A DNA stretch of 61,764 bases, counting the filler, from Sluysia triapertura (taxonomy: Eukaryota): NCBI GenBank assembly GCA_046118255.1. It is 5 parts of 5 records of this genome, joined end to end, with 100 filler letters (N's around TTAATTAATTAA, not from the genome) between each part and the next. Parts side by side here need not be neighbours in the genome. Positions count along the whole stretch, not along the records: positions 22,278 to 35,316 come from JBJNIA010064081.1; 4 more parts are not named here. One strand, given 5' to 3'. The notes beneath the pieces are model-generated. The model saw only the letters and a list, made by a program, of their open reading frames with translations. It was not told the DNA's origin and searched no databases. Positions within the stretch are counted from its first letter, which is position 1, and each line of letters opens with the position of its first letter. The position numbers were made by a program, and so were the translations under genes. Positions 505 to 61,764 of the stretch are shown here, in pieces.

Positions 505-2255
505 ACGATTGTTTAGTTTTGAGTGGTAATTTGGATATTAAATTTTTATGGCTCACAAGTCAACTAGTACCGTTTATAAAATCAAGCTTTCTGAATATGT
601 TTCAAGAAGATGTCATTTTAATTATGAGTCATTTACAAAAGCTGTACAATCCAAATGCCATAGAATTATTTTCTACATTGCTTCCTTGCTGTCTATCCTT
701 GACCACCTACAGTTTCACTAAACTTGATTCTATGAAATCATTGAAAAACAGAAACTTTCATAAAAATTCCTGGTCCGGCTTAGTATCTAAAAATCAAATT
801 TATCAACTACACAAAACTGACAAATGGAATTACATTTGTGTTTCACCAGGTGCTGAACAAAAAGCATTTCTTGACATTTTAATTGATCGATTCATTATCC
901 CTTCTATTGATGAAATGCACAAATTCACTGATTTAGTGCGATCGAACAATGATCGAATCAAATTCGAACCTTATCAGTTTCAGTCGATTTGTGATCAACT
1001 AACAGTTATTTCAGTTTGTTTAATTAATGAACAATTTTTTGTTGACAATCAAGAATGTTATCTATTTCCAGACCAATCAAAGAGCGCTTTTGAAATAATT
1101 GATCCAGTTGAATTTCGACAAAGTCGAGTCAAAAATACATCAGAAAAACAAAATCCAAAAATAACTGATTTACTAATGAAAATTCATTGCAGTGTCTATC
1201 AAGCATTGCAAGCCATCGCTGAATTTATCAATCAACCAAATCACGACTTATCTAATCTTCCGATAATCGTTAGCGATTTATATCATTTGTTTAACAATAT
1301 ACCATCTATTTTTTGTGTTAGATTCAATCCTAGAAGTTGTGATTCAAAAGAATTTCTTGATCGCCGTTTTTCGTCTTTTATCGATCCAATGGTTATACAT
1401 AAAACTAACACACCATATAATTGGATTGTAATGCTTCATTGGATGTTTACTAATTGTTGTTATGAAAATAAATTTCCAATGACATTGGAAATTCGCAAAT
1501 TAATCGATTTATTACTACCTATGGTGTACAATTCAAGTCAAATTTTACGTGATAACTCCATTTCAGCATTATTTAATATAACTAATTACTTTCTTAATGC
1601 TGAACATTATATCATTGATCAATGTTTTCGAATAGTCGATTTGAAACAATCAACAAGCTCGTCAGGTTTAGATGAACACACACATAATGGTATTGGCCAT
1701 TTGATCAGTAAAATATTAAAAAATCACTCGAATGCTTTTGAAAGTATGAATTTTATGTATAAAACTATTGCTATTTTTGTTAATTTGACTAAATCACAGC
1801 ATATTGAACAACGAACCAATCATAATTTTACAAATAAACTTTTTTCTTCATTAGTATATTTATTGACTTCATTTAAAGTAGCTCCAATTGAATTAGTTTC
1901 TGCAAATGATTGCGAAACTAATCAACAATACGTTGATAAATTACGTGAAACAACCGTACTACGTACTGAAGAATTCGGTTATTTGATTAATAATACTAAA
2001 AATGAAAGAACAGTTGATATGGTTACTAAACGCCGGCAGTTATATTATTGGTGCATTGATTATTCTATATCATTGTTTTTTGATTCAAAATTTGTCGACA
2101 ATAACGAATCTGATTTGATGGGTTTTGTATTGAAAAATAAGAATACTTGGCAAAGCACTTTACAGATTTCTATTATTTTACCTATACATCCAGAATTGCC
2201 GATTTTGTTGAAATATTTGAAATTGTTTTTTTTGACATTATTTAGTCCATCTAAG
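505..2255 (+). CDS. PSME4: Proteasome activator complex subunit 4 (PA200/Blm10), large internal exon
   Basis: Long ORF bounded by ttag| (503-504) and aag|gttagt (2256). Segments SPGAEQKAFLDILIDRFIIP...QLTVISVCL and IRKLIDLLLPMVYNSSQILRDNSISALF resemble PA200 [20 protein letters not shown]...QSLTIVHNCL and [25 protein letters not shown]. Confidence 0.8.
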
Positions 2256-2869
2256 GTTAGTCAGTTAATCGAAGTGTGTTTAAAATTATTTTCAGCACAT
2301 TTATAACAACAAATCTCAGAAGAAATTTTATAATTTTATATTATTTTAAATTGCATTGGTAAAGAAATATTTTATTCTTCTGTGTTGCTTTTTTGTTAAT
2401 GTCGCATTATAATCTTTAATGACTTAACGTTTTCTGATTGGTCGTTGTAGTTTTTAAAGGTAACACTTGTTTTATTATATCTTAAAATAATTACAACTGA
2501 ACGATTTTCAGGAGTTACACAATTTAATAATTTTAACTACTTACACTTTTATTGATATTCGGTGTAAATTTTTGAAAGGAAGTATTAGAATAATTATTTA
2601 ATATTAATTGTATCTTAAGCACTCTTCTATACAGGAATCAAGTATAATAGGTCATTACTATAATTTTTATTGGTTATCAGTTAGGTGCAATAGGTGCTCC
2701 CACACAGGGCCGACAAATGAATACATATGCTCCCACCGAAAATATATGTATGCTGACGATATTCTTATAATCGAATTTACTGTTTGGTTTTTATTTTATA
2801 TAACTTTATAAACATGCACACTGTTTATTTATTGTTTATTTGTGCTATAGGGGGCTAGTTGCGGTACTG

Positions 2870-3400
2870 ATGTGGAAATATATACTGAATTTGAAATGAA
2901 TAACATTATTCAAAGAACGAAAGAATTAGTATCTGAATTGAGAAATGGTTTAGAAATAAATACTTGAAAATCAATGAAGAAAAGTCAGAATTGTAGGTGG
3001 TAAGATGTTGGAAGCGAAACTAAAAGTACTAAATATAGAATGCTATATGGTTTGAAAATGAATATGGAATAAAATATTAATTGTATTGTTAAAAAGTATA
3101 ACATATTAAAGAAAATATCAAATATTCGAAAATTTATTAATGAAGAAACAACTAAACTAAATGTTCATTCATTGATAACCAATAACATTGATTTTAATAA
3201 TGGTATATTGTACTAAATTCCGTATAGAAAATTTCAAAATTACAATTACTGATGAATCAATCAGCAAGATTAATTTTCCAAGTAAGAAGATCTTATATCT
3301 TAGGAATTACATTGGGTACCAGTAAAAACAAGCGTAGAATTCAAAATCGTGACAACTTAAGAAAGCTTACATTATGGAAGTCCTGAATATCTCTTGGTAA
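2870..3400 (+). repeat. dispersed repeat (decayed TE) copy, homologous to 39290-39625
   Basis: Shared collinear blocks atatactgaatttgaaat, aaatattaattgtatt, gtagaattc.aaatc and ctgaatatctctt occur in both copies. Confidence 0.7.
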
Positions 3401-3532: not shown

Positions 3533-3612
3533 GGAAATATTATAGTGAATGCTTTATTTTAAGCTCTTTTACAATAGATATTAGTGCACTATAAATTAAT
3601 ATGTTATTATTA
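3533..3612 (+). repeat. short dispersed repeat, 3'-end-like, copy 1 of 3
   Basis: gaaatattatagtgaatg.tttattttaag...tagatat.ag.gca.tataaattaat is also found at 11891-11980 and 61636-61764. Confidence 0.75.
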
Positions 3613-4144
3613 ATATTATCTTTGTTGAAAAAAGTTTAGCTAATTAAAATCTTATTGCATAACTAATAGCTGTCAATCTCTTGATCAAACTGATTTATTC
3701 ATTGACGAGCCTTCCGATATTGTCGTGAATGAGACGCTTATTACCAGAAAATCTGGCGAGTCTAAATTACTCGCCACAATTATAACCATAAAATCATTAT
3801 CAATTAAAATAAAGTACTAAAGATAATCGTACTTTAACACATAAAGGTTCAGCATGCATTAATGCATAATTGTACTGCTATTGCTAAACCGCCGGCCATG
3901 CATTTTTGCACTCTGTAACTGAATTTCTGGTTGTCTAAATCTTTACTAAGCGAATGTGTCATAAGTTTACACTGGTTTTTCTTTAACATGTTAAATTTTT
4001 AAAATTCGTAAAATATCATCAGGTATTTACGCAGCAGTAAAATAAGTGTTAAGAAACTAAATTTTAAAATTAAATTTATGCATAAAGCTCAAAATTTTAT
4101 ATATTATAAATATTTAAAAAATGACGAAAAATCTTTGAATTCAG

Positions 4145-8597: not shown

Positions 8598-11011
8598 TAT
8601 ACTATATTATTTATAAGTTATATACTATAAGTTGTTTTTTTGTTATCTTTATTGTCTGGTTTGTCACATGACTGGTGGTACTTTATTTTGTGATTAAAAT
8701 TGATATTCAAATTATTATTATTATTACAAAATATAAAATAAAAACTAAACTCAATGTATTTATATGAAATTTTTGCTAAATCATAGTCGTATTTCTGTCC
8801 TAAAATCATATTTTGATTGTCAATAGTAAACAAGTTACATGGACTAAATACTGTTGTACTAGCAGCACGTCTAATGCTGTTCTTTATTTGTCTCGCATAA
8901 CACCGAAGAGCAACAGGCGACGTGCAATCTTTCATTAATTCACATAGGAAGTCATCCTTAACACATTAATATCAGAACGTTTTTAAAATTTATATTAAAA
9001 TCTTTTACCAATTACACGTGATTTTAAAATCGCTGATTTTATTACTAATTTAAAATTTTTTAAAGTACAATTTTGGAATTCTTGGAGTTCTTTTTAAACT
9101 TAAAATTTACAGTTGCAATCATTTCGTCATCATTAGCAAATTTAATAAAAACACAAAGAGCTAATATTTTATCATTATCATACTTGAAGTTTACATTCAT
9201 CTCAGAAAAAATTATAGTATTGTGGAAAATCTCAAATATCCTTTTAAGCTGTATCAAAAACAGTTAAACAAACTTCAACAGTGATTGTCATTCTTCTTGA
9301 CCTGAGTAAGTTGTCGACATACTTCATTTCTACTCCAAAACGTTTGAGTGCCATTGCTACTTCACAAAGAACAATTACTTATTCGAATATCTAGTCTATT
9401 TCAGTAGCATCTCGAAAATTCGTAAAATTTAAAATTACCACATGAACTCTTGCAGAATTCGGGATATAATAACCATGAATTCCTTTAAAGACATTACTAT
9501 ATTGTGTTGACTCGTGTTTTATAAAAATCTTTACAAATATTCGGCATTTTATATAAACAGATGTTGGCATAGATTGTTGAATTTTTCGTTCTTTTTTTGG
9601 AAATGACTTACGTTTATCGACAAGTGTATCAGTAACATAATATTTATTAGTCTTTTGCGACATTTGAAAATATTTAATTATGTTTATATTATCATGATGT
9701 TTTAGACATTTTATACGACTTTTTCTTATATATATTTTAAATTCTCTGACATTTAACCTATTTTCTATACACTAACTGGACAATCCCAACATATATCTCA
9801 TTCCCGAAGAAAATGTCTGTCCTCAAACATTCAAAAAGTACTTTTGTGAGAAATAGTAGTGTTGTGTTGTTTGAACAGAATAAATTTTAATTACATGTGA
9901 GTTCACCAACGATCTATTTAAGGCTATCAGTTGGGTTTAGAAGTAAGATAAAACTTAAGGAGGTTTTATTAATTTTACTCAATGAAATTATGCAGTGAAA
10001 ACTCTTATGTATTCTTGTTAACGTTAATATTTTACCAAGGATCTTCTTTAAAGCGATCCTAAATGATATTTTAAAATATATATAGATTTTTCTTTATTTT
10101 CGAAATTAAAAGAAACCGTTAATTATAGAGATTTTAAACAAGATTTTAATTAAGTTTTAAAAGAAACCGTTTTAAAAATTTAGTATTTTACTGTGGTTCT
10201 TAAAATGAACCAAAAACAATTACTAAAAATTTTGTTAAATATTTTACGTAATAAACTTTTCTTTCTATATGTTAACAAAATAAATGAAATGTAGAACATA
10301 TGATAAGATACAAACTTAAAATATGGTACAAGTTTATAATTTAGATGATAATTATTTTATACTGATTATTTCTTGATAATCTTTAGCGTTACAAAATTTA
10401 AAACGATATTTTACTTAGTTAACATTTTAAAAGTTAACTATGAAATTAAAGAGATCTTACGTATATTTTTCTCTGTAACTAAATTGTCGCGCAACCTAAC
10501 AAAATTATACTAACTATAACTAATATTGTAAAAGTTGAATTCATGAAGTCGCTAATCGAGTAGTTCGAGTTAAACCGTTAGAATAGTGTTAAAACAAGTT
10601 CCTTATTTATACTAAAACTATTAACCTTGATTAAAAATTTTATTTTAATTTAATTTAACAAAATCAGTTAAATAATTTTTATGTATCGCTAGTTTCTATT
10701 TAAATTGTAAAATCTTTATTTATTAACGTTAAAATAAAATTGCAAAAATATTTGAACAATTTCAATAATTATAATAATAAACGATATAAAATAATTTGTG
10801 AAATGTTTGTGATACGCATTAACATATAATGACATATAATGTTTGCAATAAATAAATACATACATTAACAATATCCCAATTAAAAAGGATCTACAAAAAT
10901 GAAATTTAATACTAAATTAATACGACACGAGTGGTACAGGTTCCATTACGTTTATTATGATCGTAGAGATGACTTTTAAACTTAATTTTAAATTTATATG
11001 AGATTTGTTAT

Positions 11012-11111
11012 NNNNNNNNNNNNNNNNNNNNNNNNNNNNNNNNNNNNNNNNNNNNTTAATTAATTAANNNNNNNNNNNNNNNNNNNNNNNNNNNNNNNNN
11101 NNNNNNNNNNN
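11012..11111. other. artificial scaffold spacer
   Basis: 44 N + TTAATTAATTAA (stops in all six frames) + 44 N, 100 nt total. Confidence 0.97.
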
Positions 11112-11890
11112 ATGATAACAATAATGTAATTATTGTATATTTTAAAACAATGATGTTGTGATATTAATATAAAAGTTATTATTATCATACTATATAACAA
11201 TTATGATAATAATTATTATATGTTTTGATACGATTGGATTTATAAAAATAATAACTATGGTTCATGACAATTATGTACAACGACTATGTTTGTTTGTTGA
11301 ATGATTCAAGTAGTTTATTTAATGTACTGTGTATGTAAGAGATGTTTTTTGTGATTTGGATATGAATTCCCGACATGTCCTTTTTGCTGTCCGCTTTGTT
11401 ATGAAATATGGTGGTTTACAAGTATAATCCCTTATATCAATATTTTCTGTAAAACGTGAACTTCATTACTTTCAAAATCTGTTCGTGTTTTGGTAGTAAG
11501 TAATAAGTTTAAGTGACACTCAACAATTAATAATGGCTCAAACATTGTAAATATTTAAATCGGAAGCAATTTTAACACAAGAATTACTGTTCATCTTCGT
11601 TTATCTACAATGTCACGTGATACATTGCGTATGTAAATAATAAGAATAATATTGGATATTGTGGGAGGGCTTTATATGTTTTAAAGTTAACAAATTATAA
11701 TTATTTTTGTTTATTTTTTTAATTATGTAAAAATTATCCGAAACATGAAATTTGGAAAAAGTTATCAAAATGTTAAAACTATTAATTACTGAACTAGGCT
11801 TAAGGCCTTTTAAAAATAACAATTTTAAACAAATAACAACAAAGTTATGTAGTGTTCAAATATTTAAGAAAAATGCAAACTTCTTTCTGT

Positions 11891-11980
11891 TTCAGAAATA
11901 TTATAGTGAATGATTTATTTTAAGTTCTTCTGAGTACTTTGCAGTAGATATGAGCGCAATATAAATATATTATTATTGTT
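11891..11980 (+). repeat. short dispersed repeat, copy 2 of 3
   Basis: ttcagaaatattatagtgaatgattta...tgagtactttgcagtagatatgagcgcaatataaat is nearly identical to 61636-61715. Confidence 0.85.
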
Positions 11981-12640
11981 AATTAAATTTTGTGTCAGTG
12001 CACACTGGGTTAAGTAAGCACTTCTGCTTACGTTTGACTAAACTCATAAAATCTGAGATACAATTAAATATTTTGAATATAGGTAAATACTTGAGATATT
12101 ATTAATGAAGGTACTTTAATTATTATATATTATTGTATATTATTATATAGATGCCTATCAATCACGAAAATGTTTGACCTAAATCAAGAATTATCTCAAA
12201 TGTGTTTCAATGTATTTTGTGCTGCTTTCTTGAAATGATCCGGACCTATAATAATTCGAAATTAATTTTTACACCTTCTTATATTATAAATCTTATCCAT
12301 TATATCTGTTAACATGTTTACTGTCATTATATGAAATAAAATTTCTTGCCATGCAGCTTGTACATCTTCCTTTGTATACATATCTGAATTTGGAATAATA
12401 TTTGGTGCTAAAATTTTTAATTTTCTTTCATCTCAGTTAAATTTATTAATTCAGGCATTTTAGCCTAACATCTATGGGCAGTGATATCCAAAGATTATCA
12501 TCAATTTTATATTCTGGAGCTATTACATTCGAGTAGTGGATAGGTTTTTGTTTTATCTTATTGCATTGTTTTCTTTCTGAAAATTATTTACTTAATGTGC
12601 GTTTAAATGTGTCTTACTGCTGGCCTCACATATAATATAC

Positions 12641-13058
12641 CAGGGATGGCGAACCAATGGCATACGTGCCACAAGTGGCACGTTTGAAAGTTTTGATGGC
12701 ACGCACAAAAAAACAAAATTATTTTTTATAAATTAACTTTTTTGATAGAAATGAATTAAAAATTATTAATCTACACTTTATAATTTATGATATAAATTTG
12801 TAGTGCTGAATACCTATTTTAGTATGTTAACTAGAACCGTCAAATTATACATTTTATTATTAAAATATCGCAAGAATTCTCTCGAAGTATATAAAGATGC
12901 GCATTAGATAAAATTCCTATTTGTTTATTTAATTATACTTACGCTTAGTTTCACCACGCTAACATTCCGAATGAAATTTTATTTTGGCACGTTACCTATT
13001 TGAAAAAGAATTTTTTGGACTTTGTGGCACGGACATCAAAAAAGGTTCGCCATCCCTG
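12641..13058. mobile_element. non-autonomous hAT (Charlie/Buster-type) MITE, 418 bp
   Basis: Perfect 15-bp TIRs CAGGGATGGCGAACC / GGTTCGCCATCCCTG, with repeated subterminal TGGCACG/CGTGCCA motifs at both ends. No matching 8-bp TSD. Confidence 0.9.
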
Positions 13059-24907: not shown

Positions 24908-25899
24908 GATAACATTAACTAAAAAATTTTTTAAATGTCTAGACAATTTTCTATAGTCTATTGAAATTTTTAATTGTAACTATTTTTGTCTGCCCAATCA
25001 GAGTGTTAAGTAATGAGGTGTACTCTGATTGGATGATATTTAGTAATGAATTAATATGGAGATAAACAATAACTGATGGCTGACCATCATCAGGGCTGAC
25101 AGCCTAATGTAAATGTGACAGACTGTCAACACTGGTGATGGCAGCAACCAGATTTGTCATCACATTAATGGTAATTTTTATTTTTGGTTATTTAATAAAA
25201 TTAGCAANNNNNNNNNNNNNNNNNNNNNNNNNNNNNNNNNNNNNNNNNNNNNNNNNNNNNNNNNNNNNNNNNNNNNNNNNNNNNNNNNNNNNNNNNNNNN
25301 NNNNNNNNNNNNNNNNNNNNNNNNNNNNNNNNNNNNNGTCTTGTTTAGAACTTATACACGATCTTTTTCTTTATATTTCTTTAATTTCTACATATGAATA
25401 AAAAGAAATAAAACTGATAAGATGTTGTGAAGGAAGAACGGCAACGAGGTAGGATACGTCTCAGTTGTCGTTGTTGCTTCTTGCTGAGATAATGAAATGT
25501 TTAAAGCTTGATTGTTTCTCTTTAAATGAAATAGAAATGAATTGAATAGTAATTGAAAGAAGAATGTTAGGAAAGGCTTATTGAAATTTATTAAAAGTTT
25601 GTAATTAAAATAAGGTTTGATCTTTGAATATGATGGTTTGAGATATTTAATGAAAGGTAAAATTTATTTTAGTTTTAAAAGACAATTACAAAATAAATCT
25701 TAATATATTATAATGTTATTACGGATAAATGTTAATGATGAATATGTGTATATGAAGTAGATTTAGCTTGATGGAGTTTGTTAAAGATATTAATGTAAAA
25801 GATTTATATTTCTGAGGTGCTTGTTAACGTAGTTGAATAGTGTTATTGTGTTATGATTTGAGTATTTTATATTGTGATTGTGGTTTGTTTGTTAGAATA

Positions 25900-26164
25900 T
25901 CTTATGAGTGAATGTTGTGAGTTATTCGAGATTAAATGTCGGCGTTTGTTGTGCTGTGGATGATTAAAATGTTAGTCGAATTGTTGATGTGTTCATTAAT
26001 GAGATATTATAAATATGAAATGTTCTTTACGGTGATTGTGTTGGTGTAATTCGATAGTAAAAAGTGTGATTGTTTTAGAAATTATATTTTAGTGAACTTT
26101 TTGAGTTATGAATGTTGTATGTGACGTTCTAACAAATTTTAGGTTGTGAGTGTTGGCCACTACA
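25900..26164 (-). repeat. C/A-skewed dispersed repeat starting TGTAGTGGCCAAC (possible LTR)
   Basis: Start shared with 52268(-) TGTGGTGGCCAAC and 6628(+). The left boundary is uncertain. Confidence 0.55.
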
Positions 26165-26539
26165 CGCTCATCATATCCCGACATTTAACTTGCAGACATC
26201 TTAAAACAATTTCATTTTTAGTATTTTAAGGAATTAGATCTAAATATGTTGAGAATAAACAAAGAAATCAAAAGCAAGATCATGTTAATTTTCAAAAAGA
26301 ATTTATGCATTAATAACAACAACAATAATAATAACATTGCTATTATTATTATCATTTTACTTCCATTATTTTAATTGTTAAATTTTTATGTTATTACAAA
26401 ACCAGTAATTAACACCATCAATGATGACACTATTAGTTACTACGTATAAATTCTCGTCATCATTGATAGTGGCTTGTCTAATAATTTCATTTATTTTGTG
26501 TTGCCAACATTCGTCCAACCAAAGAAATTATTTTCATTA

Positions 26540-26790: not shown

Positions 26791-27837
26791 TTTGTTTGAG
26801 CTTAAATTTTTATTAATTAAAAAATGAAAAATAAATATAAAAAGATAAAATAATAATAGTAATAATGACAACAAAATGCATAAATTTCTTGTAATAAGTA
26901 TACACGACCTTTCTGTCTTGTTCTTTTAATTCTTAACATATTTTAAATTAACAGAGAAATAAAATTAGCATGTATTTAAACTAAAGATCTTTGCGTATAT
27001 CTTTGTCGTAATATGATATGGTAAGAATACTTTTGTTATGAAGTAAAATGTAGAATGTTAGAGTGAATTTCCAAATAATAACTAATCTTTTTGATTGAGA
27101 GGGACATTTGAACATTGAACAGTGAATAAAAGACCTATTGAGAAAAGTGTAGTTTGGTAAATGTGAAAAGCTAAATTATAATACAACTATTGATATATTT
27201 GAAATATTATTGTGTAATGTTTTGTGTGATTTGTTTATTTCTTGTTTTTGAGTGGTATTGCATTGTGTTGTTGGTGAATATGCTGAGACAAATGGTGAAT
27301 TTAAGGTGTTGTAATTGATTCGAAGGTGCAAAGTAAATAATTTTAAATGTGGAAATTATTTGGTTGTAGTGGATGTTGAGTTGCATGTTTTTGGTAGATT
27401 TGTTGGTGAAAGTTGATGATATTGGATGTAACTGTGGTTTGTATATTATGAGATTGTGAATATGGTTTAGTTTAGACAAAAGAACTGTTTAGTGAGTGTG
27501 TATGAGGTTTAATTAATTTTTTCATTTAAAATTTTAAGAGTTATAACAGTTATCCACCACAAAAGAAGGTAGAAAGATAATTATAAAGATAAAAATACTC
27601 TTCGCGAAATGAAAACGGAATTAAAAAGGTTATCAATAAAAGTGAATGTAGTGATTCTGTGAGTAAATCAAGGACGAAATTAGAACTTATATTAAATGAA
27701 AATAGTAATACTAAGTTACAAAATCGGTTAACAAATACTTTGTGCTTTAGTAGCACAATAAGTCAGCAACGTCCTCTTAAAAATTAAATGAAACAAAATA
27801 ATTCTAAAAAAGTTATTTTGACATAAATACTATTTTG

Positions 27838-29463
27838 ATGTTAAAATATTTTTTTACATTAATAGTACAATCAATAAGAGTATACGATTGTGAAAATTCT
27901 ATACTCGGATTTCACTAATGGATGATGAAGAATGTCTTGAATACATTTATTATCAAAATACGTTTATTAAGTTTTATGACCAAATGCGTCGCATAACCAA
28001 CAGAGATGGTTAATTTATACTCAAGCGAAAATATATTCGATTATAAGAAAAAGGTCTATTAGGTAGTGCGGACATCAAAAGTTAAACAACCTACATTAGA
28101 GGAATATTTAGAAATTACGCCTGCTAATTGTTATTCAGCTTTTAAAATAGATACACAAATTAAACTAAAAGCAAAAGTTTGTACAGTAATTCATTAAGAA
28201 ATTATAGTAGTAGGAGATTTGTTCAATTATGGTACATGTGATTAGTATCAGGAAAGAAAAGTAAAACAAGTATTACTCATAGATACGTATTAAACGGAAA
28301 TTAAGAATGTTGGAGTAATATTATGAATATTAAGAATAATAGGTCGACCGTATAGCTTAGTTAGTTTAAATTCTTATTTTGACGGTCAAAATACACTAAT
28401 ATATGATGCGCAAAAGCAAGAATGTGGAGTAGTTTTCTTAAAGAAATTAAAGGAAAAATATTTACTAAAGGTAAAAATATTTTAGAAAATGACAGTCTTA
28501 TCCTACTTAAGAAAATGAATTGCGAGAAAAAGAAATACTTTTTATATTAATAGCTAATAAAACAGCAGATGCAATAAGATTAGTGAAACGAGATATTATA
28601 AAAACAAACTATGATAAATTTTTTATAAAAACAAAAAATTAAACAAACTTATTCTATTTGACGTTAATTTTACTACTTATTTACTATTTTTGTATCATCA
28701 CCAACTACGGCAAATAGAGGACTTATATCGTAAAATGATAATAAATGATTGTAAATTGAATAGAGAGATTTTAAGAACGAAAATGACATTAATTATGGCA
28801 GATCCAAATATAGCATGTCCACTAATTCCTCTATGAAATGGTGTCTTTAGTAGAATCATGGGAGAAGCATTACAAACATTCAAATGCAAAGAAGTCGAAA
28901 CGAAACAAATATATGTTCCTATGAGTTATTATTTATTTATAAAGGAATCTGACGTTAAACAGGTAAAAGAAATTCAGAAACTACTGGATAGTTAACTCCT
29001 ATTTCACCACCTAGAAGTTTTGCTTTAACAAATTTAGATCATAATATTCAATTTAAAACAATTGAAGATTTAATGACAAGTGGACTATATGACCAAAAAA
29101 ACAATGGAAGAAGCAAGAAGATATCTATTGTTCCCTCAGGTTAGAGATAGAATACTTACGGAAATAGATGAAACATCTCTGATTGAAAACACAAACAGAC
29201 CCGATTTTGAAAGATTGTTATCTGAAAATCATTTCGAAAAGGCAGCTAAAAATGTTATGAAACAAATATGGGAAAAATTTCTCATTTTTGGACAAGCAAT
29301 AGCAGGAGTTTATTACATTATAATAATTATTAAAACTTTATTTAAGAAATTAATATCCACTTACGAATTATATAAAGTTATTGGATTAAGCTGGTGTAGA
29401 GAAATCACGTCTGCACGCTTCATCACACACGAACATTTCTTACATACACAGAACACTAAATAA
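27838..29463 (+). pseudogene. decayed chuvirus-like (class III fusion) glycoprotein gene; endogenous viral element or retrotransposon env
   Basis: Collinear motifs across stops and frameshifts: MLKYFFTLIVQSIRVYDC / TRISLMDDEEC / EYLEITPANC / VGDLFNYGTC / QIEDLYRKMIINDCKLNREILRTKMTL / GVFSRIMGEALQTFKCKEVE / DLMTSGLYDQK-TMEEARRYLLFP / IWEKFLIFGQAIAGVYYIIIIIKTL...YELYKVIGLSW. These match the recalled chuvirus G pattern GYDC..T.SL.D..EC / C.LERQVL...L / GY.A..AGE......C..VE / SGIY......R..IMFP / W..F..FG...AG / Y.LH...GWS. Confidence 0.8.
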
Positions 29464-30269
29464 ACTACTTGACTCATTCAAAAAGCAAACAATCATTTTA
29501 CATAATTATCATAAACTAAATTTATTGCATTTTAAATCCAATTGTAATAATAATTCTTATAATAATACCACATCATCAACATAATCGTATTAATATATAT
29601 CATTATTATGATTATCATGTAGTAATCCTTATAATATCTCAACATCACCAACATCATATTAAAATATAATAATTATATTATAGTTATCATTATGATTTCA
29701 GTTTTTACATTCCATCTTCCTTTTATTTATCATCAATCTTTCTTTTTATTCTTTTGTTTGCATGAATTTTTATATATTTATGTATATGATTCTGATCTCT
29801 AGATATTACAGACATTTGATTCGTGATTAACTTTTATCATAATTCCATCTTTTTATCTTTTATGGCTTTAATAAAACTTTAAAAATTAGACTAATTTTCC
29901 CTAATGGTGTAAAGGTGTGTGTATTTATATTATTGTAAAGGTATTATTTTTCATGTATTTAATTTCATAAATTATTTAAAATATATTTTTATGTATATAT
30001 TAAATTAAAAATAAAAAATGTATAAATGAAATTACCATGAAATACTTATAAAAATAAAATTATAAAGCATCAATATTTTTCAAAGATTTTAACTACCACC
30101 TATTGGTAGATCAATAAATTTAAAGATATGGTTTTCTTATTCACAAATATTAAAGACAAATTCAAAATTTATTAATATTATACAAAGCGATACATCAAGC
30201 TTATTAAAAATTATCAAATAATAACTAGAAATTAACAAAAAAGAGTAAAAACACATGAAAATAATGTAT

Positions 30270-31176: not shown

Positions 31177-33254
31177 TAATATATTTAAATCATAAAAACT
31201 AGAACTAAAAAACCTTGACCTATAAATAATAAAGTTTATTTTAAATTATTTTCATATTATATTAAAAATCATACCAAAATTAGTTCCTCAACAAAATACG
31301 AACATAAAAATTTTATAAATGTAATAATTTAGAAGTATTCATTTTTTTCAATTTTTATAATCATTTTATTACATTTTTATTAACTATAGCACTTAAATAA
31401 ATCACATATTTTTTATTTTTTTCAGAAATTTTTTAGCAAACAAAAATTACTTATATTCTTAAAATAAATAGGCAAAGTATTTTTAACTTTCTGCGAATAT
31501 TCAGAAAAATTTACTTCTAACTTTACACGATTAAAACTAAATATGTTACATAATGAATTCATATCGAACAATAAAAGTATCGCATTTGTAATAAACTTAA
31601 AAAAGGAAAGTAAATGTAAATATTATGTTGAATGAAAGACTTAACTTATTCTGCATCATATTATTTATAAATAAAATGTTAATTTACAAACTTAATTGTA
31701 TTATCAAGCTATTATGAAAGAAAAAGGATTTAATAAAATTTACATATCCGTAAAAAATATTAAAGCATGATTTTAAATAATACTGGAGTGTTAATTCAAT
31801 TCATGTCAGAAGAAAAACGTTAAATTTAAAAGTAAGGATAACGTGACTAAAAATGTAATGCCACAAATTTAAGAATAAAAAATAGTAAATGGGTGATTCA
31901 TATAACTAATCGTGATTCTTATATGAAATTAAATGGTATGTCATAGACTTATGGCAGACTTGACGTGTTTTAATTATCACAACTATCACCTTTAATGAGC
32001 CATGTTTTTAATATTTCGATCAACTTTGTCATTTAATATTTTCTAACATTACCAATCCATTTTCATTGAGAGTGACAAGTGTACATTATTCAATAAAACA
32101 AATACCAGATTTGGAGTTAACAAACTTTCGCTCAGTGTGTTCCAAGTTTATAAAATTAATCAAAAATACTGAATCGAACCTTATTTAGTTCATTGAGCAT
32201 CTTGTGTTTATTGCTTTGTTTACTGATATCCTTCACATAAAACTGAATCTCGATATATTATTATATAACAATTATAAAAGTCAAATCTTTATATGACAAA
32301 TCTTCATATCACAATTATAGTTATATAAATCAAACTTTTTATATAGTTAATCAAATTCTTTAATAAATTACTATCGAACTCTTTAAAAATCTCAGGGGTT
32401 ACACAACATAAATGTTGTTACCGCAAATAAAATATAAAATAATAATAAAAACAAAATGAATCTTAACTCTCTACTAACATCGTAAACTTATTTTGTCTTA
32501 ATGTTATTTCTGAAGAAAAAGATTCAATGAGTGTTATCCACAACTCAATTGAATCCAGCGTTCCTATAGAAAGAAGTTCCTGACTAATTTGTCGATTGAC
32601 ACTGTTGTCGCTTTTTTCTGGATTGTTATGGTGATTTTATGTAAAAAGTCAGCTCTTTATATAGTATCCAGATAATTGTCAGATAGTAGGGAATTCAATT
32701 CAATTATTTTGCATGTTTTACGCCGACTCATTACTAAAATGAAATTTCAATATTAATTTCCAATGAATGTCCGATTTTAGATTGCCTGAAAATTATTTAT
32801 AGATAATGAGTTTTGTGAAGAACAAACCCATATCTCTTTAAAATAATCAAATCATAATTTAATATCACAATTAGCATTATACAAACAGATAAAAATATAC
32901 ATAATCCTAATTTACTTATATTTATAATCTAGCATAAAACTTCTTTTAATAACAATACTTTATATCATACACAACACGTTAACGGTACGTCACAAGTCAA
33001 TCTCAATAGCGTGTATTGACTTGTTTCTTTACAAGCTCTAATTTGATATATACGTTATTAATGCTCGTACATTGGAGCGTATTTAATCTTTAATTTTAAA
33101 TTATAAAATTAATTAAAATAGCTAATTTTACGTTATCTGCGTTGACGTGCTTCGTAACACTTCATTACCAAAACCAATACTAAAACTCAACATTATATAT
33201 GATATCATCATATTATCAGCAAATATTTTTATTGAGTTATCAAATTAAATATTA

Positions 33255-33486
33255 TTAATTAAATTAATTAGCAAATGTACTTTAACACTTCGACAAATAA
33301 AACCATATAAAAGATTATTTCTTCGTATTTCTCATTATCTTATCTTATTCAAGTATTTCATATACTTATCTTATCATTACAATTCATCATAGTCCCCTAT
33401 CTCAATTTCTCAATGAGGTTTACCTTATCTGTCATCCTGAATCTTGAACCTTTATATCTACCTTTGCTTTTCAATAATCCCAACAA
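33255..33486 (-). repeat. solo-LTR-like repeat starting TGTTGGGAT, inverted copy of 35071-35305
   Basis: caaatgtactttaa, ataaaacc, ttcgtat.tctcattat, ttatctta and ttcatca are the reverse complement of collinear blocks in 35071-35305. Confidence 0.7.
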
Positions 33487-33842
33487 TAATATTGTTGATT
33501 TTTATTTTAATTTAAGTAAAAGTAGATTGAGTAGAGTAAAAGGAAGTTATGGTTGATAATAAATAAGATTTCTATGCGTTGTACCTAATGAAGTTTGACA
33601 GACCGTACCATGTAATTGCCAAAGTTTTATTGTCGGTTTGATTCTCAAAGAGGTTTGGATGATTTGTGTGAGAGAATGTTTGATTGTGAGACTGGGAATT
33701 GATTGGATGATGAAAGAGTAAAATCCATGCTTTCGGTAAGGATTATATATTTCATTTAATTATTTTAATATTATTTTAATTATTATTTTGATTATTATTA
33801 TTATTTCATTTGATTTTTTAGTGGGACTATTTTTAAATTCTG

Positions 33843-33960
33843 TAATATCATTTGGTGGGACACTCCCTTTGCTATTTTATTTAAAAAAACATTAACTTTA
33901 TTTTCATTTTTAAGGGATTTTAATATCATTTGGTGGGGGATACCCTTTGCTATTTTATTT
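33843..33960. repeat. local duplication of about 40 bp, period 78
   Basis: taatatcatttggtggg....ccctttgctattttattt occurs twice. Confidence 0.85.
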
Positions 33961-35070
33961 TAAAATATTGAATTTATCCATCAATAATGTTCTGGATATT
34001 GACATTTTTCAGTCTGTGTTGCGTCCTTATTATTATTATAAACACTATTGTTAATTATGTCATTTTAGCTATTTTAGTATTCTTAGTGGAGATTCTTAGT
34101 AACAGTAAATTATATTTTTTTAAAACTTTTGTTTAATAGTAAATTATTGTGTTATCTTGATTTGATTTCAAAAAGTTTAATTTTGGGGTAAATAATTATT
34201 TATATTAAGTAAAATAATTACTTAAAATTATACTTGATATAGTGACTATTTAAATTATTAAGATTCTTTTAAGCTGATCAAGTTAATATTGAGTTGTAGT
34301 AATTAATAAAATTTTAAAGACGCAACAATTTTATTCCAACGCATAAATTTTCTCCAACGATCTTTTTAAACACAGATTTCAAATTTAACAATTTCAAGTT
34401 TAACTGCCTTAACATTATACAATAGTTTAAAGACTCCTAAAGTCATTGAAAAATTCACATAATCAGAAACGCACTCAGTTAATAAGATTTAAGTAATACA
34501 TAAGCACCAATCGAAAAAAGAAAGGTATAGGCTATACATTCACAGATCTTCTACACTTTTACTTTCACTCAAAGAAATAGAAATAGTAAAAGAATGAGAA
34601 ATTATAGAGAATATACTTTCTTTTAGGAAGTACAAATTTTTACGAAACAAACACTTTTACATATTTTTACAGTAAAGAAATATGTTTAAAATCAGAAAGA
34701 ATGTATGCAAAATTTTTATTTTTGTTTTATTATTTATTATTATTTTCATTTTTATATTATTATTACATATTTTTATTTTATTATTATTAACGNNNNNNNN
34801 NNNNNNNNNNNNNNNNNNNNNNNNNNNNNNNNNNNNNNNNNNNNNNNNNNNNNNNNNNNNNNNNNNNNNNNNNNNNNNNNNNNNNNNNNNNNNNNNNNNN
34901 NNNNNNNNNNNNNNNNNNNNNNNNNNNNNNNNNNNNNNNNNNNNNNNNNTCAATCTATTTCATTGTTAGTATTATTATTATCATTATTAATCATTATTAT
35001 TATTAGTAGCACATTTTCTCATCTTCACCATCATTTTAACCACTATTTAATTCAAGGTGTTCAATTATAT

Positions 35071-35305
35071 TGTTGGGATTAGTGAAGAATAAGGGTTGGT
35101 ATAAGGGTCAAAACTTGGGATAACAGAGTTGGTTGAACGTTATTGAAGAACTAAGACGAAGCATTGTGATGAACTGCAATAGTAAGATAACCATGGAGAA
35201 CATTTGAATCAAAGTAAAATAATGAGAGATACGAAAAGATAACCCTGTAAAAGGTTTTATCTGCTAAAATATTAAAGTACATTTGTTAATTAATTTAATT
35301 ATAAT
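35071..35305 (+). repeat. solo-LTR-like repeat starting TGTTGGGAT
   Basis: Homologous, in opposite orientation, to 33255-33486. Confidence 0.7.
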
Positions 35306-35316
35306 TTGTTTAATTT

Positions 35317-46991: not shown

Positions 46992-47763
46992 TTAACGATT
47001 TGATTTTGCTACTCTTTCCAATTCATCCTTCTTTTTAATTGCATACGAATTTGAGCTTCCTTTAGCAGCATTAATCAGTTCATCACTTAGACACTCAGCA
47101 ATTGTTTTCCCATTTTTCATAGCTGCTTCTCTAGCCCCAGTACATAATAAGGCTATAGCTTTATTGACTCTTCTCAACGGAGAAACATCCACGGCTTGGC
47201 GCTTTACTGTACCACCGCGCCCAATCCTTGTTGAATCTTCACGCATACCAGAATTTGAAATAGCTTTTACAAGAACTTGAATTGGATTCTAAAATTAAAT
47301 AAATTAGAAGCAAACAGAAAAATAATTTAAATTAGCATAAAAATTTAAATCGTCAGAAGCATTAAAAAATCACATTATCATACGAACGAGACATATTTCA
47401 TCATTTAAGCTATATTATGATTAGCAAAATAAAATAAAAATAACCTCGCCACTTAACAAACTAATAATTTGAAAGGATTGTTTAATTATATTTATTGCCT
47501 TTATTTTCTTACCGTTGTTACGACCATGCATCATTAAAGAACAAACGAATCTTTCGATGATAGGACATTGAGCTTTTCTAAATCTTTTTATTTGATACCT
47601 TCCTGCAGAATGGGGAATCAATTTAGCATATTTCTTGTTGTAATTTATATAATCCTATGTATACCGTAAAAAAAAATAAAAATTATACCGTTAAAGATAA
47701 GTCATAAGTTTGAACTTCTTCTGGGTTCCATTCTCCAAATAAGTTTACTTCAGTTGTTTCCAT
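46992..47763 (-). CDS. RPS5: 40S ribosomal protein S5 (uS7), exons 47763-47689, 47654-47445, 47288-46992
   Basis: [12 protein letters not shown]...|DYI...[22 protein letters not shown]...[10 protein letters not shown]...SGE|NPIQVL...[27 protein letters not shown]...[13 protein letters not shown]. The GT-AG introns are 34 and 156 nt, both phase 0. Confidence 0.98.
47347..47408 (-). ncRNA. intronic C/D-box snoRNA guiding 18S rRNA 2'-O-methylation
   Basis: Box C ATGATGA (47404-47398), guide GTCTCGTTCGT (47392-47382), D' ATGA (47381-47378), a C'-like TGTGATT, and box D CTGA (47356-47353) about 64 nt from the 3' splice site. The guide is complementary to conserved 18S ACGAACGAGAC. Confidence 0.88.
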
Positions 47764-48253: not shown

Positions 48254-48489
48254 TATGATCTGAATCGTAATAATAATAGCGATAGTTCATGATAATTAGA
48301 TGTGATGGTCATGTTTGTTTTTGAATGAGTAATAGTTTGTTTAATAGTCTGTGTATATGTGAAGTGCTTTTGTGCGATGTAGTGTGATGGATTTTGTGTG
48401 AAGAATCCCCTACAATTATCATTTTAATCAATTTTATTATTATCATATTGATGCTAATAATTAAACAATTGTGCTTAACATATATTAAT

Positions 48490-57400: not shown

Positions 57401-58725
57401 TAGTTTTTACTTAAGTAATTTCAAATGATATTAGTACTTCTTAAATTATAATTTCACAGTAAAACATGCTTTAAAACATCATTTTGCATCCACATGATAA
57501 TAATTGTGATAAAATATATATGTAAAGTTTTATTATATAAAGTTTTATAATCATGTGTTGTTTTTTTTAAATATTAAAATTCAAGTAAAACATTTTAAAT
57601 GCGATATTATAAATAAAATATTAATGTACTAATATACTAGTGATTATTGTACTTTTAGAGATACATGTTGAAACCAAATTTTTAGGTCGAAGAATGGCTA
57701 AAGACTTAAATCGTCATATTGAATTGAGGTTGTTGAATTTAATATTTCTTTTACAAAAATAATTGGTGAATAAAGGATAAATGTCAACATAAAAATGGAA
57801 AAATGTAAAGAAAATTTATGAAGGATAGTTAAAGAGAGAAACAACATAGTTAAGATGCTAAAAGAAATTCCATTGGGTCCGTTTTCAGTGAACGACTTAT
57901 GAAGTGGGCGTTTTAAAATCTTTAAAATCACTTTAAAATCTTAACGTTAATAATGCGCGATTTTGCACTTCGGTGTGATATTAAAGAATTGTTAATAGGT
58001 ACTATGTAAATGTTGGTAAACGAAAAAGGAGTTATTCATCTACTTTAACATGGATCGCTATTTGTGTTATTTATTTGGGTTAATATGCTTTAAGTGTAAC
58101 AACAGTATTAAATATTAATATTTTTTCCGACCTTGAGTTGACAAAATTTAACAACTCTAAAATAATTCTGCAATATTTTTCTTTTATTTTCATCTAAATA
58201 AAATGGTTTTTCCTTGTAACAAGTATTTATCTTTCCGAACAATTTCAAAATTCGAATTGATAAATTTTAAGCTCATTTTATGTTGTTCGAATACTTTAAA
58301 AATGATTTGTTTCACTGGAAGTCACTATTGGTCTTTAAATCTCTAATATTTGTGCGATCAAGTCTACCTTTGCACATGCTTTAACATTTCTGCATATTAT
58401 GCTGCTGAGACTACTGTTTTCCAACAATTTTTAATGACAAATTTATGGAAATGTTGAAAAATTTTATGAAATTAAATAAATAGAATGCTATTTTTAATAA
58501 GACATTGAATATTTCTCCCTCTAAATATATTTAAAAAACTATTTAGAATAAGGTACCAACTTCATATTATATGTAAATAATCAAATGTACTTAACCAAGT
58601 TAAGTATTAAACGCAATTTCTATTATAATGAAATATGTTGAATAATGTTAATAGGGAATAAAATTTTTTAAAACATTGTTCGAGATAGGTTTACAAAATT
58701 ATGGATTTATATTACGTAAAATAAC

Positions 58726-58975
58726 CCGTAGCAGGATCTGTAGCTGATTGCTTGAGAGCTTCTCTTTGTAACCGACATGCTTCTTTACAATCAAGCAAAT
58801 TCACCTCTTTACTTAATCGCATACGTGCATGTGCTTCAGCAAGTCGCTTCAAAGATTCTAATTGCCTTGGATAAGTAGTAACATGACCTGAATTAGACCC
58901 AACTTTTCGCATTTCTAAATACTGTGACCTCAAAAATGAAGCAGCAGGTTGACTTAGTACTGGATGAATGTGAGC
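58726..58975 (-). CDS. MCM4: MCM4 replicative helicase subunit, single internal exon (arginine finger region)
   Basis: tttag|AHIHPVLS...YLEMRKVG...[23 protein letters not shown]...[17 protein letters not shown]|gttatt. [11 protein letters not shown] is diagnostic of MCM4. Confidence 0.92.
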
Positions 58976-61635: not shown

Positions 61636-61715
61636 TTCAGAAATATTATGGTGAATGATTTACCTTAAGCGCTTTGAGTACTTTCGTAGTAGATATGAGC
61701 GCAATATAAATTAAT

Positions 61716-61764
<49 letters not shown>
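61636..61764 (+). repeat. short dispersed repeat, copy 3 of 3, ending in a long (TAT)n tail
   Basis: Near-identical to 11891-11965, followed by (TAT)n to the window end. Confidence 0.85.

Follow-up and report, generated by a model that had tools for sequence, protein, structure and literature searches.

The window analyzed here, by which we mean the whole stretch of 61,764 nucleotides, has a GC content of 24% and is gene dense, with short introns. Among its features (Table 1) is a decayed env gene, which keeps an internal-signal-like start, the ectodomain, a heptad helix, and the first transmembrane segment. This gene is followed directly by a dispersed repeat, referred to here as R1; two further R1 copies, a second env relic, and a host ribosomal protein gene were also located.

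Table 1. Features of the window, with positions counted along the whole stretch
Feature	Position	Strand	Basis or remark
Upstream stretch with 64-codon open frame	27506..27831	+	X1 contig 85% alike at 27575-27807
Decayed env gene (HSV/gB-type, PF24664)	27832..29394	+	Pfam, tblastn to P0001, frame-by-frame map, clade profile
Dispersed repeat R1	29395..29690	+	Copies at 11112-11355 and 48283-48386 share 71-75% identity with it
R1 copy, purine-rich run before it, cut by assembly gap	11112..11375	-	Repeat comparison
Third R1 copy, no env found adjoining, cut by assembly gap	48254..48414	-	Repeat comparison
Second env relic, C-terminal third, more diverged, another subfamily	12069..12562	-	Clade profile, E=8.3e-10
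Host ribosomal protein S5 (RPS5) gene with introns	46995..47751	-	Used for host placement

Structure and surroundings of the env gene

Read along the plus strand over three frames, the env copy presents, in order, a hydrophobic start, YDC, SLMDDEEC, DCKLNREIL, GEALQTFKCKEVE, SGLYD, EEARRYLLFP, and WEKFLIFGQAIAG, with SGLYD and EEARRYLLFP in different frames; every motif listed in the first-pass annotation was thus located, in the order given there. Frame 1, searched with X at stops, matched the Pfam family PF24664 (Monjiviricetes_fusion) at E=3.6e-22, its 78.5 bits passing the curated cut-off of 27, and the terminal ORF by itself matched at E=1.2e-13. Frames 2 and 3 of the locus, each searched singly against Pfam, gave no match. 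A clade profile recovered the gene with E values of 1.7e-46 and 5.4e-41. Together with the predicted fold of a relative (below), the Pfam match bears out the earlier assignment to the class III glycoproteins of the chuvirus-like family.

The extent of the decay was gauged against P0001 (HBK71150.1), the best protein match found. A frame-by-frame map revealed several stops, ∼7 frame changes, and several deletions, as had been proposed. By tblastn, the env copy corresponds to P0001 residues 377-972, for which 1788 nt would be expected and 1563 nt are present; the net loss is ∼225 nt, and ∼13% of the copy has therefore been lost internally. The C-terminal tail of Env is also missing. The gene had been described as near full-length, at 27838..29463. 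Its location, its strand, and the broad span of the glycoprotein stand, but homology ends at 29394, with the ORF tail at 29395-29463 being read-through into R1, and the losses just given qualify its completeness. The start, earlier described as signal-peptide-like, matches the internal signal of polyprotein relatives (P0001 residues 366-386) and is not the start of a gene. Open reading at the 3′ end is confined to the last 128 codons, and the GC content of the relic (0.24-0.27) matches that of its flanks. The env copy encodes nothing functional today.

Neither tblastn with 14 related proteins or gag/pol pieces nor a pol profile (best E=0.14) detected gag, RT, or integrase in the 62-kb window. 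A six-frame Pfam search of 2.5 kb on either side of env, which decayed fragments could escape, returned no family, including N or L. Neither paired LTRs nor a target-site duplication could be found. Because gag and PR-RT-RH-IN went undetected in the window, the locus is filed as an env remnant of the family and not as an element, and its element context is inferred from relatives rather than seen in place. The upstream stretch, at 27506-27831, is possibly the remnant of a gag-env linker; it has no similarity to P0001 (best E=0.92) and no second copy in the window.

R1 begins with TGTAGAGA precisely where env homology ends and has an LTR-like 5′ end. Its 3′ end lies between 29690 and about 29970, a unique contig of sequencing run X1 (described below) starting at 29969. 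Similarity of R1 to the other two copies far exceeds that of shuffled sequences (z=20 and 12.7), and TG-starting motifs are present at all three 5′ ends. No R1 copy lies upstream of either env relic on the same strand. The second env relic aligns to P0001 in two pieces, at 27% and 48% identity, and falls below the Pfam threshold.

Other repeats were recorded in the course of this comparison. Two AC-rich repeats at 25600-26185 and 26971-27510 were considered as R1 copies and rejected, their similarity not being significant (z=1.8 and -1.0); they are strongly strand skewed, 59% alike, and of high X1 depth, and the former opens with the TG motif of R1 on the minus strand. The pol profile likewise lent no support to an integrase-like reading immediately upstream of the R1 copy that starts, on the minus strand, at 11375. 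Directly 5′ of the second env relic, at 12641-13058, lies a 418-bp element whose terminal inverted repeats, of 15 bp, are perfect and for which no matching target-site duplication was seen. We take this element to be hAT-like. A repeat of ∼90 bp occurs in three copies (3534-3619, 11891-11981, and 61636-61727), one of them between the second env relic and R1. Two inverted copies of a 257-bp sequence, at 33242-33494 and 35062-35316, share 73% identity and are spaced about 2 kb apart; they are candidate ends of a DNA transposon.

Relatives and phylogenetic position

A phmmer search of 1.84 billion representative proteins gave 95 matches at E values up to 0.001. The best of these, P0001 (2627 aa, E=7.3e-88), is 59.5% identical to the env copy over 296 columns. 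In a single ORF, P0001 encodes Env and, after it, protease (1083), RT (1394), RNase H (1615), and integrase (1833-2004), with a CCHC-like knuckle discernible by eye at the N terminus. Hydrophobic segments are present before Env (366-386), after Env (931-955), and after integrase (2254-2277 and 2534-2567). This complete gag-env-pol polyprotein is annotated as a hypothetical protein of a Flavobacteriaceae MAG, on a 9084-bp contig, which is likely eukaryotic DNA binned into the bacterial MAG as a contaminant.

Pfam was used to scan 21 of the best 23 phmmer matches. Retro-type protease or RT follows Env in the same ORF in 11 of the 21, another 7 records are short (143-492 aa) and consist of env only, and the remaining 3 (P0002, P0009, and P0014) are longer and gave no retro Pfam match; an RdRp or nucleoprotein domain was found in none (0/21). 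The relatives carry RT_RNaseH, RT_RNaseH_2, and Integrase_H2C2, and those scanned gave no Pfam match to Peptidase_A17 or DUF1758/1759. Such domain sets distinguish gypsy from BEL/Pao elements. Three metagenome loci were also found: in L001 and L003 a single ORF encodes Env-PR-RT-RH-IN, and in L002 a CCHC-knuckle ORF precedes an env truncated by the contig end. In L001, a 496-codon ORF (10617-12104) lies 3′ of the gag-env-pol ORF and has a weak match to RNase_T exonuclease (E=1.4e-5).

Other searches were less productive. A word-based protein search retrieved 2 relatives among 7999 candidates with the env part of P0001 and none among 8000 with the read-through frame of the window copy. Pattern matches in GTDB contigs (0/59) and viral contigs (0/450) included no relatives. 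An Atlas search found PF24664 clusters at 0.91, the recognition value lying below threshold. For structural comparison we turned to P0002, which is 40% identical to the env copy and has a predicted fold with a mean pLDDT of 80; its best Foldseek matches in the PDB are to herpesvirus gB (E=1e-12, TM about 0.35-0.45). Judged on the P0002 model, rather than on the broken copy, the predicted fold of the env family is class III and gB-like.

Four of the polyproteins encode a second predicted membrane protein after integrase (P0001, 2254-2567; P0003, 2486-2742; P0096, 4361-4735; and P0099, 2587-2910). The layout in each is a signal-like segment, about 240-350 residues, and a transmembrane segment; the four tails align only weakly with one another, and fold prediction gave no usable model (mean pLDDT, 33). 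A short motif in this protein presumably recalls fibronectin type III.

The phylogeny called for in the first-pass annotation was built from 101 proteins considered, of which 72 had an env span of 300-900 aa and 69 passed a coverage filter. The careful tree, rooted at the midpoint, comprised 28 rows: the window env and 27 hand-chosen from the 69. Here the env copy is sister to P0001 (100/99) within a 14-row clade (100/100) consisting of the window copy, 12 polyproteins, and one short record, and a quick tree of 70 rows gave the same placement. Identity to polyproteins other than P0001 is 24-44% over 296 columns. The named insect-genome proteins sit in another clade. P0034 (705 aa), in which RT and RNase H are fused before the PF24664 domain in a different env-pol arrangement, groups with stand-alone glycoproteins.

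Chuvirus glycoproteins are represented in the careful tree by two named rows, one of them long branched. The env copy is 21.3-21.4% identical to these proteins, from Wufeng shrew chuvirus 2 and Tacheng tick virus 4, and their phmmer matches scored E=1e-11 and 1e-7, respectively. Forcing the env copy to group with the two named chuvirus G proteins and one further relative was rejected by the AU test (p=4.7e-7). On the evidence of these alignments, the env copy is not chuvirus derived in the narrow sense.

Host placement and abundance

RPS5 was used to place the host. The window protein is closest to those of animals, and in a tree of 168 columns it is sister to trematodes plus cestodes (99/96), with Macrostomum outside, on a long branch (0.28) for which long-branch attraction is possible. 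Named rows for triclads, monogeneans, orthonectids, dicyemids, and myxozoans were absent from the tree. GRGG and a non-proline at SGxRED are common to the window RPS5 and the same 8 of 120 matches listed, and a KKxKxxN motif is common to it and 8 of 114 scored matches; 7 of the 8 motif sharers are trematodes or cestodes. Although sampling is thin, we consider a flatworm host likely from these RPS5 comparisons, in keeping with the earlier remark that the host does not look like an insect. An orthonectid or myxozoan host, suggested by composition, was set aside on the RPS5 analysis, in whose tree neither group is represented.

Two further host sequences were noted. An MCM AAA-lid exon lies at 58712-58975 on the minus strand (E=2e-19); visual inspection of the translations upstream of it, as far as the end of the window, revealed no MCM ATPase motifs. 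A 632-codon ORF at 408-2306 on the plus strand has no Pfam match; Atlas gave HEAT-repeat leads, with no family consistent among them and nothing on lineage.

Abundance was assessed in X1, a single sequencing run of unrecorded kind, available as contigs, which contains 0.41 of the words. X1 differs from the unique DNA neighboring the env copy at 1 position in 930 bp and at none in 1406 bp, at a depth of 11-21. As X1 is possibly the window's own source, its depth is not independent support. Summed depth over the env bins is 17,000-53,000, or about 800-2,500-fold that of unique DNA, these values being sums over contigs and not copy numbers. At one env site, a depth of 13,064 is split over 4 contigs, which gives a lower bound of about 150-155-fold in one contig. 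Because depth over env is so far above that of unique DNA, the env family is probably abundant, likely with hundreds of copies. The first env bin has a depth of 27,226 and the stretch immediately upstream a depth of 939; over R1, depth is about 800-3,100 at the places listed (bin mean, 12,174), below the env depth. Low-depth X1 contigs with other env deletions are present, and transitions account for 425 of 650 differences over the whole 9.4 kb compared with X1. Extremely abundant in X1 is a repeat at 32290-33869 (summed depth, 229,000-476,000, compared with 11-21 for unique DNA).

Origin of the env copy and comparison with known elements

The closest relatives of the env copy are the Env regions of Ty3/gypsy polyproteins with the order Gag-Env-protease-RT-RNase H-integrase, and so we conclude that this broken env is very probably the remnant of a dead element of that kind, in what is likely a flatworm genome. 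Of the two origins offered in the first-pass annotation, the relic of an enveloped retrotransposon is thus the one that agrees with the nesting of the copy among gag-env-pol polyproteins (100/100).

An intact member of the family would be translated as a single long Gag-Env-Pol ORF. An internal signal sequence of the P0001 366-386 type would thread the Env ectodomain into the ER, where signal peptidase would separate Env from Gag, and a transmembrane segment of the P0001 931-955 type would stop transfer, so that protease, RT, and integrase would remain cytosolic, to be released by the element's aspartyl protease. By analogy with gB, Env trimers would work as a class III fusogen, fusing membranes, and particles would enter neighboring or germ-line/stem cells in the way that the available text of PMC13524379 describes for Drosophila gypsy. 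Reverse transcription and integration would come after cell entry. The window copy would have integrated as part of such an element, gag and pol would have been lost through deletion and nested repeat insertion, and neutral decay would have followed.

A variant of this explanation, with the same origin, is that the unit amplified in this genome is an env-only non-autonomous derivative, which retains env plus an LTR (R1), no longer has gag or pol, and is copied in trans by autonomous gypsy elements. We regard this variant as unlikely. The window holds two env relics and zero pol relics, a small sample, and R1 lies downstream on the same strand of both, at 0 and about 700 bp; the chance of this arrangement is 2e-4 to 3e-3 in a post hoc simulation with 3 to 9 random R1 copies. 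The R1 copies open with a TG motif, as this variant has it, but a junction at that very TG is also what an unrelated LTR element inserting into env would leave, and the X1 depth of R1 is below that of env, whereas an LTR belonging to the family would be expected to match or exceed it. Similarly, the drop in depth just upstream of env suits an env-only unit but also fits a 5′-truncated copy or a fast-evolving linker. Fuller, and slightly more doubtful, is a scenario in which a recently amplified env-only gypsy family (LTR plus gB-type env, without gag or pol) has hundreds of copies in a flatworm, possibly a neodermatan, and its autonomous members encode the post-integrase membrane protein as a partner of gB.

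The remaining explanations assign env a different origin. The endogenous viral element envisaged in the first-pass annotation would here be the single integration of a reverse-transcribed G gene from an exogenous, jingchuvirus-like RNA virus. It would account for the fact that no retroelement gene adjoins the relic; PF24664 was built around such viral glycoproteins, and the part of PMC7305300 available records a tapeworm virus of the Jingchuvirales. We strongly disfavor this origin and hold it to be very improbable: the nearest relatives are retroelement polyproteins (35-59% identity, compared with 21% for named chuvirus G), both the tree placement and the AU test oppose it, no N or L domain was found within 2.5 kb, the 450 pattern matches in viral contigs yielded no relatives, and the very high X1 depth suits retrotransposition better than a single integration. 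Descent from the env of an Anakin- or Tas-type BEL/Pao element, the carrier first suggested, has precedent in mosquito BEL/Pao elements with chuvirus-like glycoproteins (described in the accessible portion of PMC7642597), yet it is even harder to credit, as the relatives scanned have Ty3/gypsy-type Pfam domains, without the BEL/Pao set, and carry Env in frame and ahead of pol. Least likely, by a small margin, are domestication of a fusogen gene by the host and contamination or misassembly of the stretch. An open frame over the last 128 codons would suit domestication, but this open tail is without the signal sequence and most of the ectodomain, and stops and frameshifts are many. Although P0001 is itself likely a binning contaminant, the env relic has the GC content of its flanks and stands among intron-containing eukaryotic genes, and X1 carries the neighboring unique DNA near-identically, with no listed X1 contig bridging it to env.

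The known systems closest to the dead gypsy-type element favored here are the giant gypsy-like LTR elements of dugesiid planarians, Burro and GYPSM1. According to PMC6431247, Env of Burro shares a single ORF with the Gag that precedes it and the Pol that follows, all in the same frame, as in relatives of the window env, and matches mononegavirus fusion glycoproteins; decayed fragments bearing stops and frameshifts, like the window copy, are described from Dugesia japonica. We call the relatives Burro-like on domain resemblance. Within the clade of the window copy, P0002 has a Bcl-2-like domain (E=1e-3, below the cut-off), and P0096 (4844 aa) has ankyrin and several proteases. Burro in the strict sense has an ORF of about 4,900-5,100 aa, BIR, BCL2, MATH, and ankyrin extras, and multi-kb LTRs. 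In contrast, P0001 is compact, at 2627 aa, and without such extra Pfam matches, Burro having been compared by description only.

HSV/gB-type GAG-ENV-POL errantiviruses, which were reportedly treated by Sacco et al. in 2022, combine a Ty3/gypsy pol and a gB-like env in the same GAG-ENV-POL order as the relatives of the window env. The consulted portion of Chary and Hayashi (PMC13524379) places them in Platyhelminthes, Bryozoa, and Nematoda. It names 9 flatworm elements, one of which, in Schmidtea, has 215 intact copies. Of 55 flatworm genomes surveyed, 3, each of a free-living species, have annotated elements, compared with 0 of 50 neodermatan ones; a single ENV-POL env candidate is given for each of 3 of these 50. 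Unlike these elements, the window copy is not intact and has no gag, pol, or LTR pair. As in-frame gag-env-pol with such an env is already published for planarians (in the parts of PMC6431247 and PMC13524379 available), the proposal of an undescribed kind of element is not supported, although the particular env family may so far be unannotated. Since the comparison covered published descriptions, this family may already be among those published.

Viral and arthropod systems are more distant. Chuviridae (Jingchuvirales) G and arthropod endogenous viral elements, as covered by the accessible part of PMC10084718, share PF24664, the motif series, and the class III fold with the window env, but chuvirus G is a stand-alone ORF of about 650-770 aa in a separate clade. 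Anakin, which was compared by description (partial text of PMC7642597), is a mosquito BEL/Pao retrotransposon with a chuvirus glycoprotein, of which solo glycoprotein copies also exist; it differs from the relatives of the window env in being BEL/Pao rather than Ty3/gypsy and in its arthropod host.

This work adds one apparently unannotated and probably abundant family to the described enveloped gypsy elements of flatworms. It also advises caution, in that matches to a "chuvirus-like glycoprotein" in non-arthropod genomes are often retrotransposon env genes and not records of RNA virus infection. If the host is neodermatan, the family would extend the range given in the available text of PMC13524379, and if the amplified unit is env-only, selection keeping a fusogen without its own gag and pol would be implied. 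A non-exhaustive literature search of titles and abstract openings returned no env-only gypsy family in flatworms and no post-integrase membrane protein. In the part of PMC13524379 consulted, cell entry of gB-type errantiviruses without gD and gH/gL is posed as an unsolved problem, for which the predicted post-integrase membrane protein of four relatives offers a lead.
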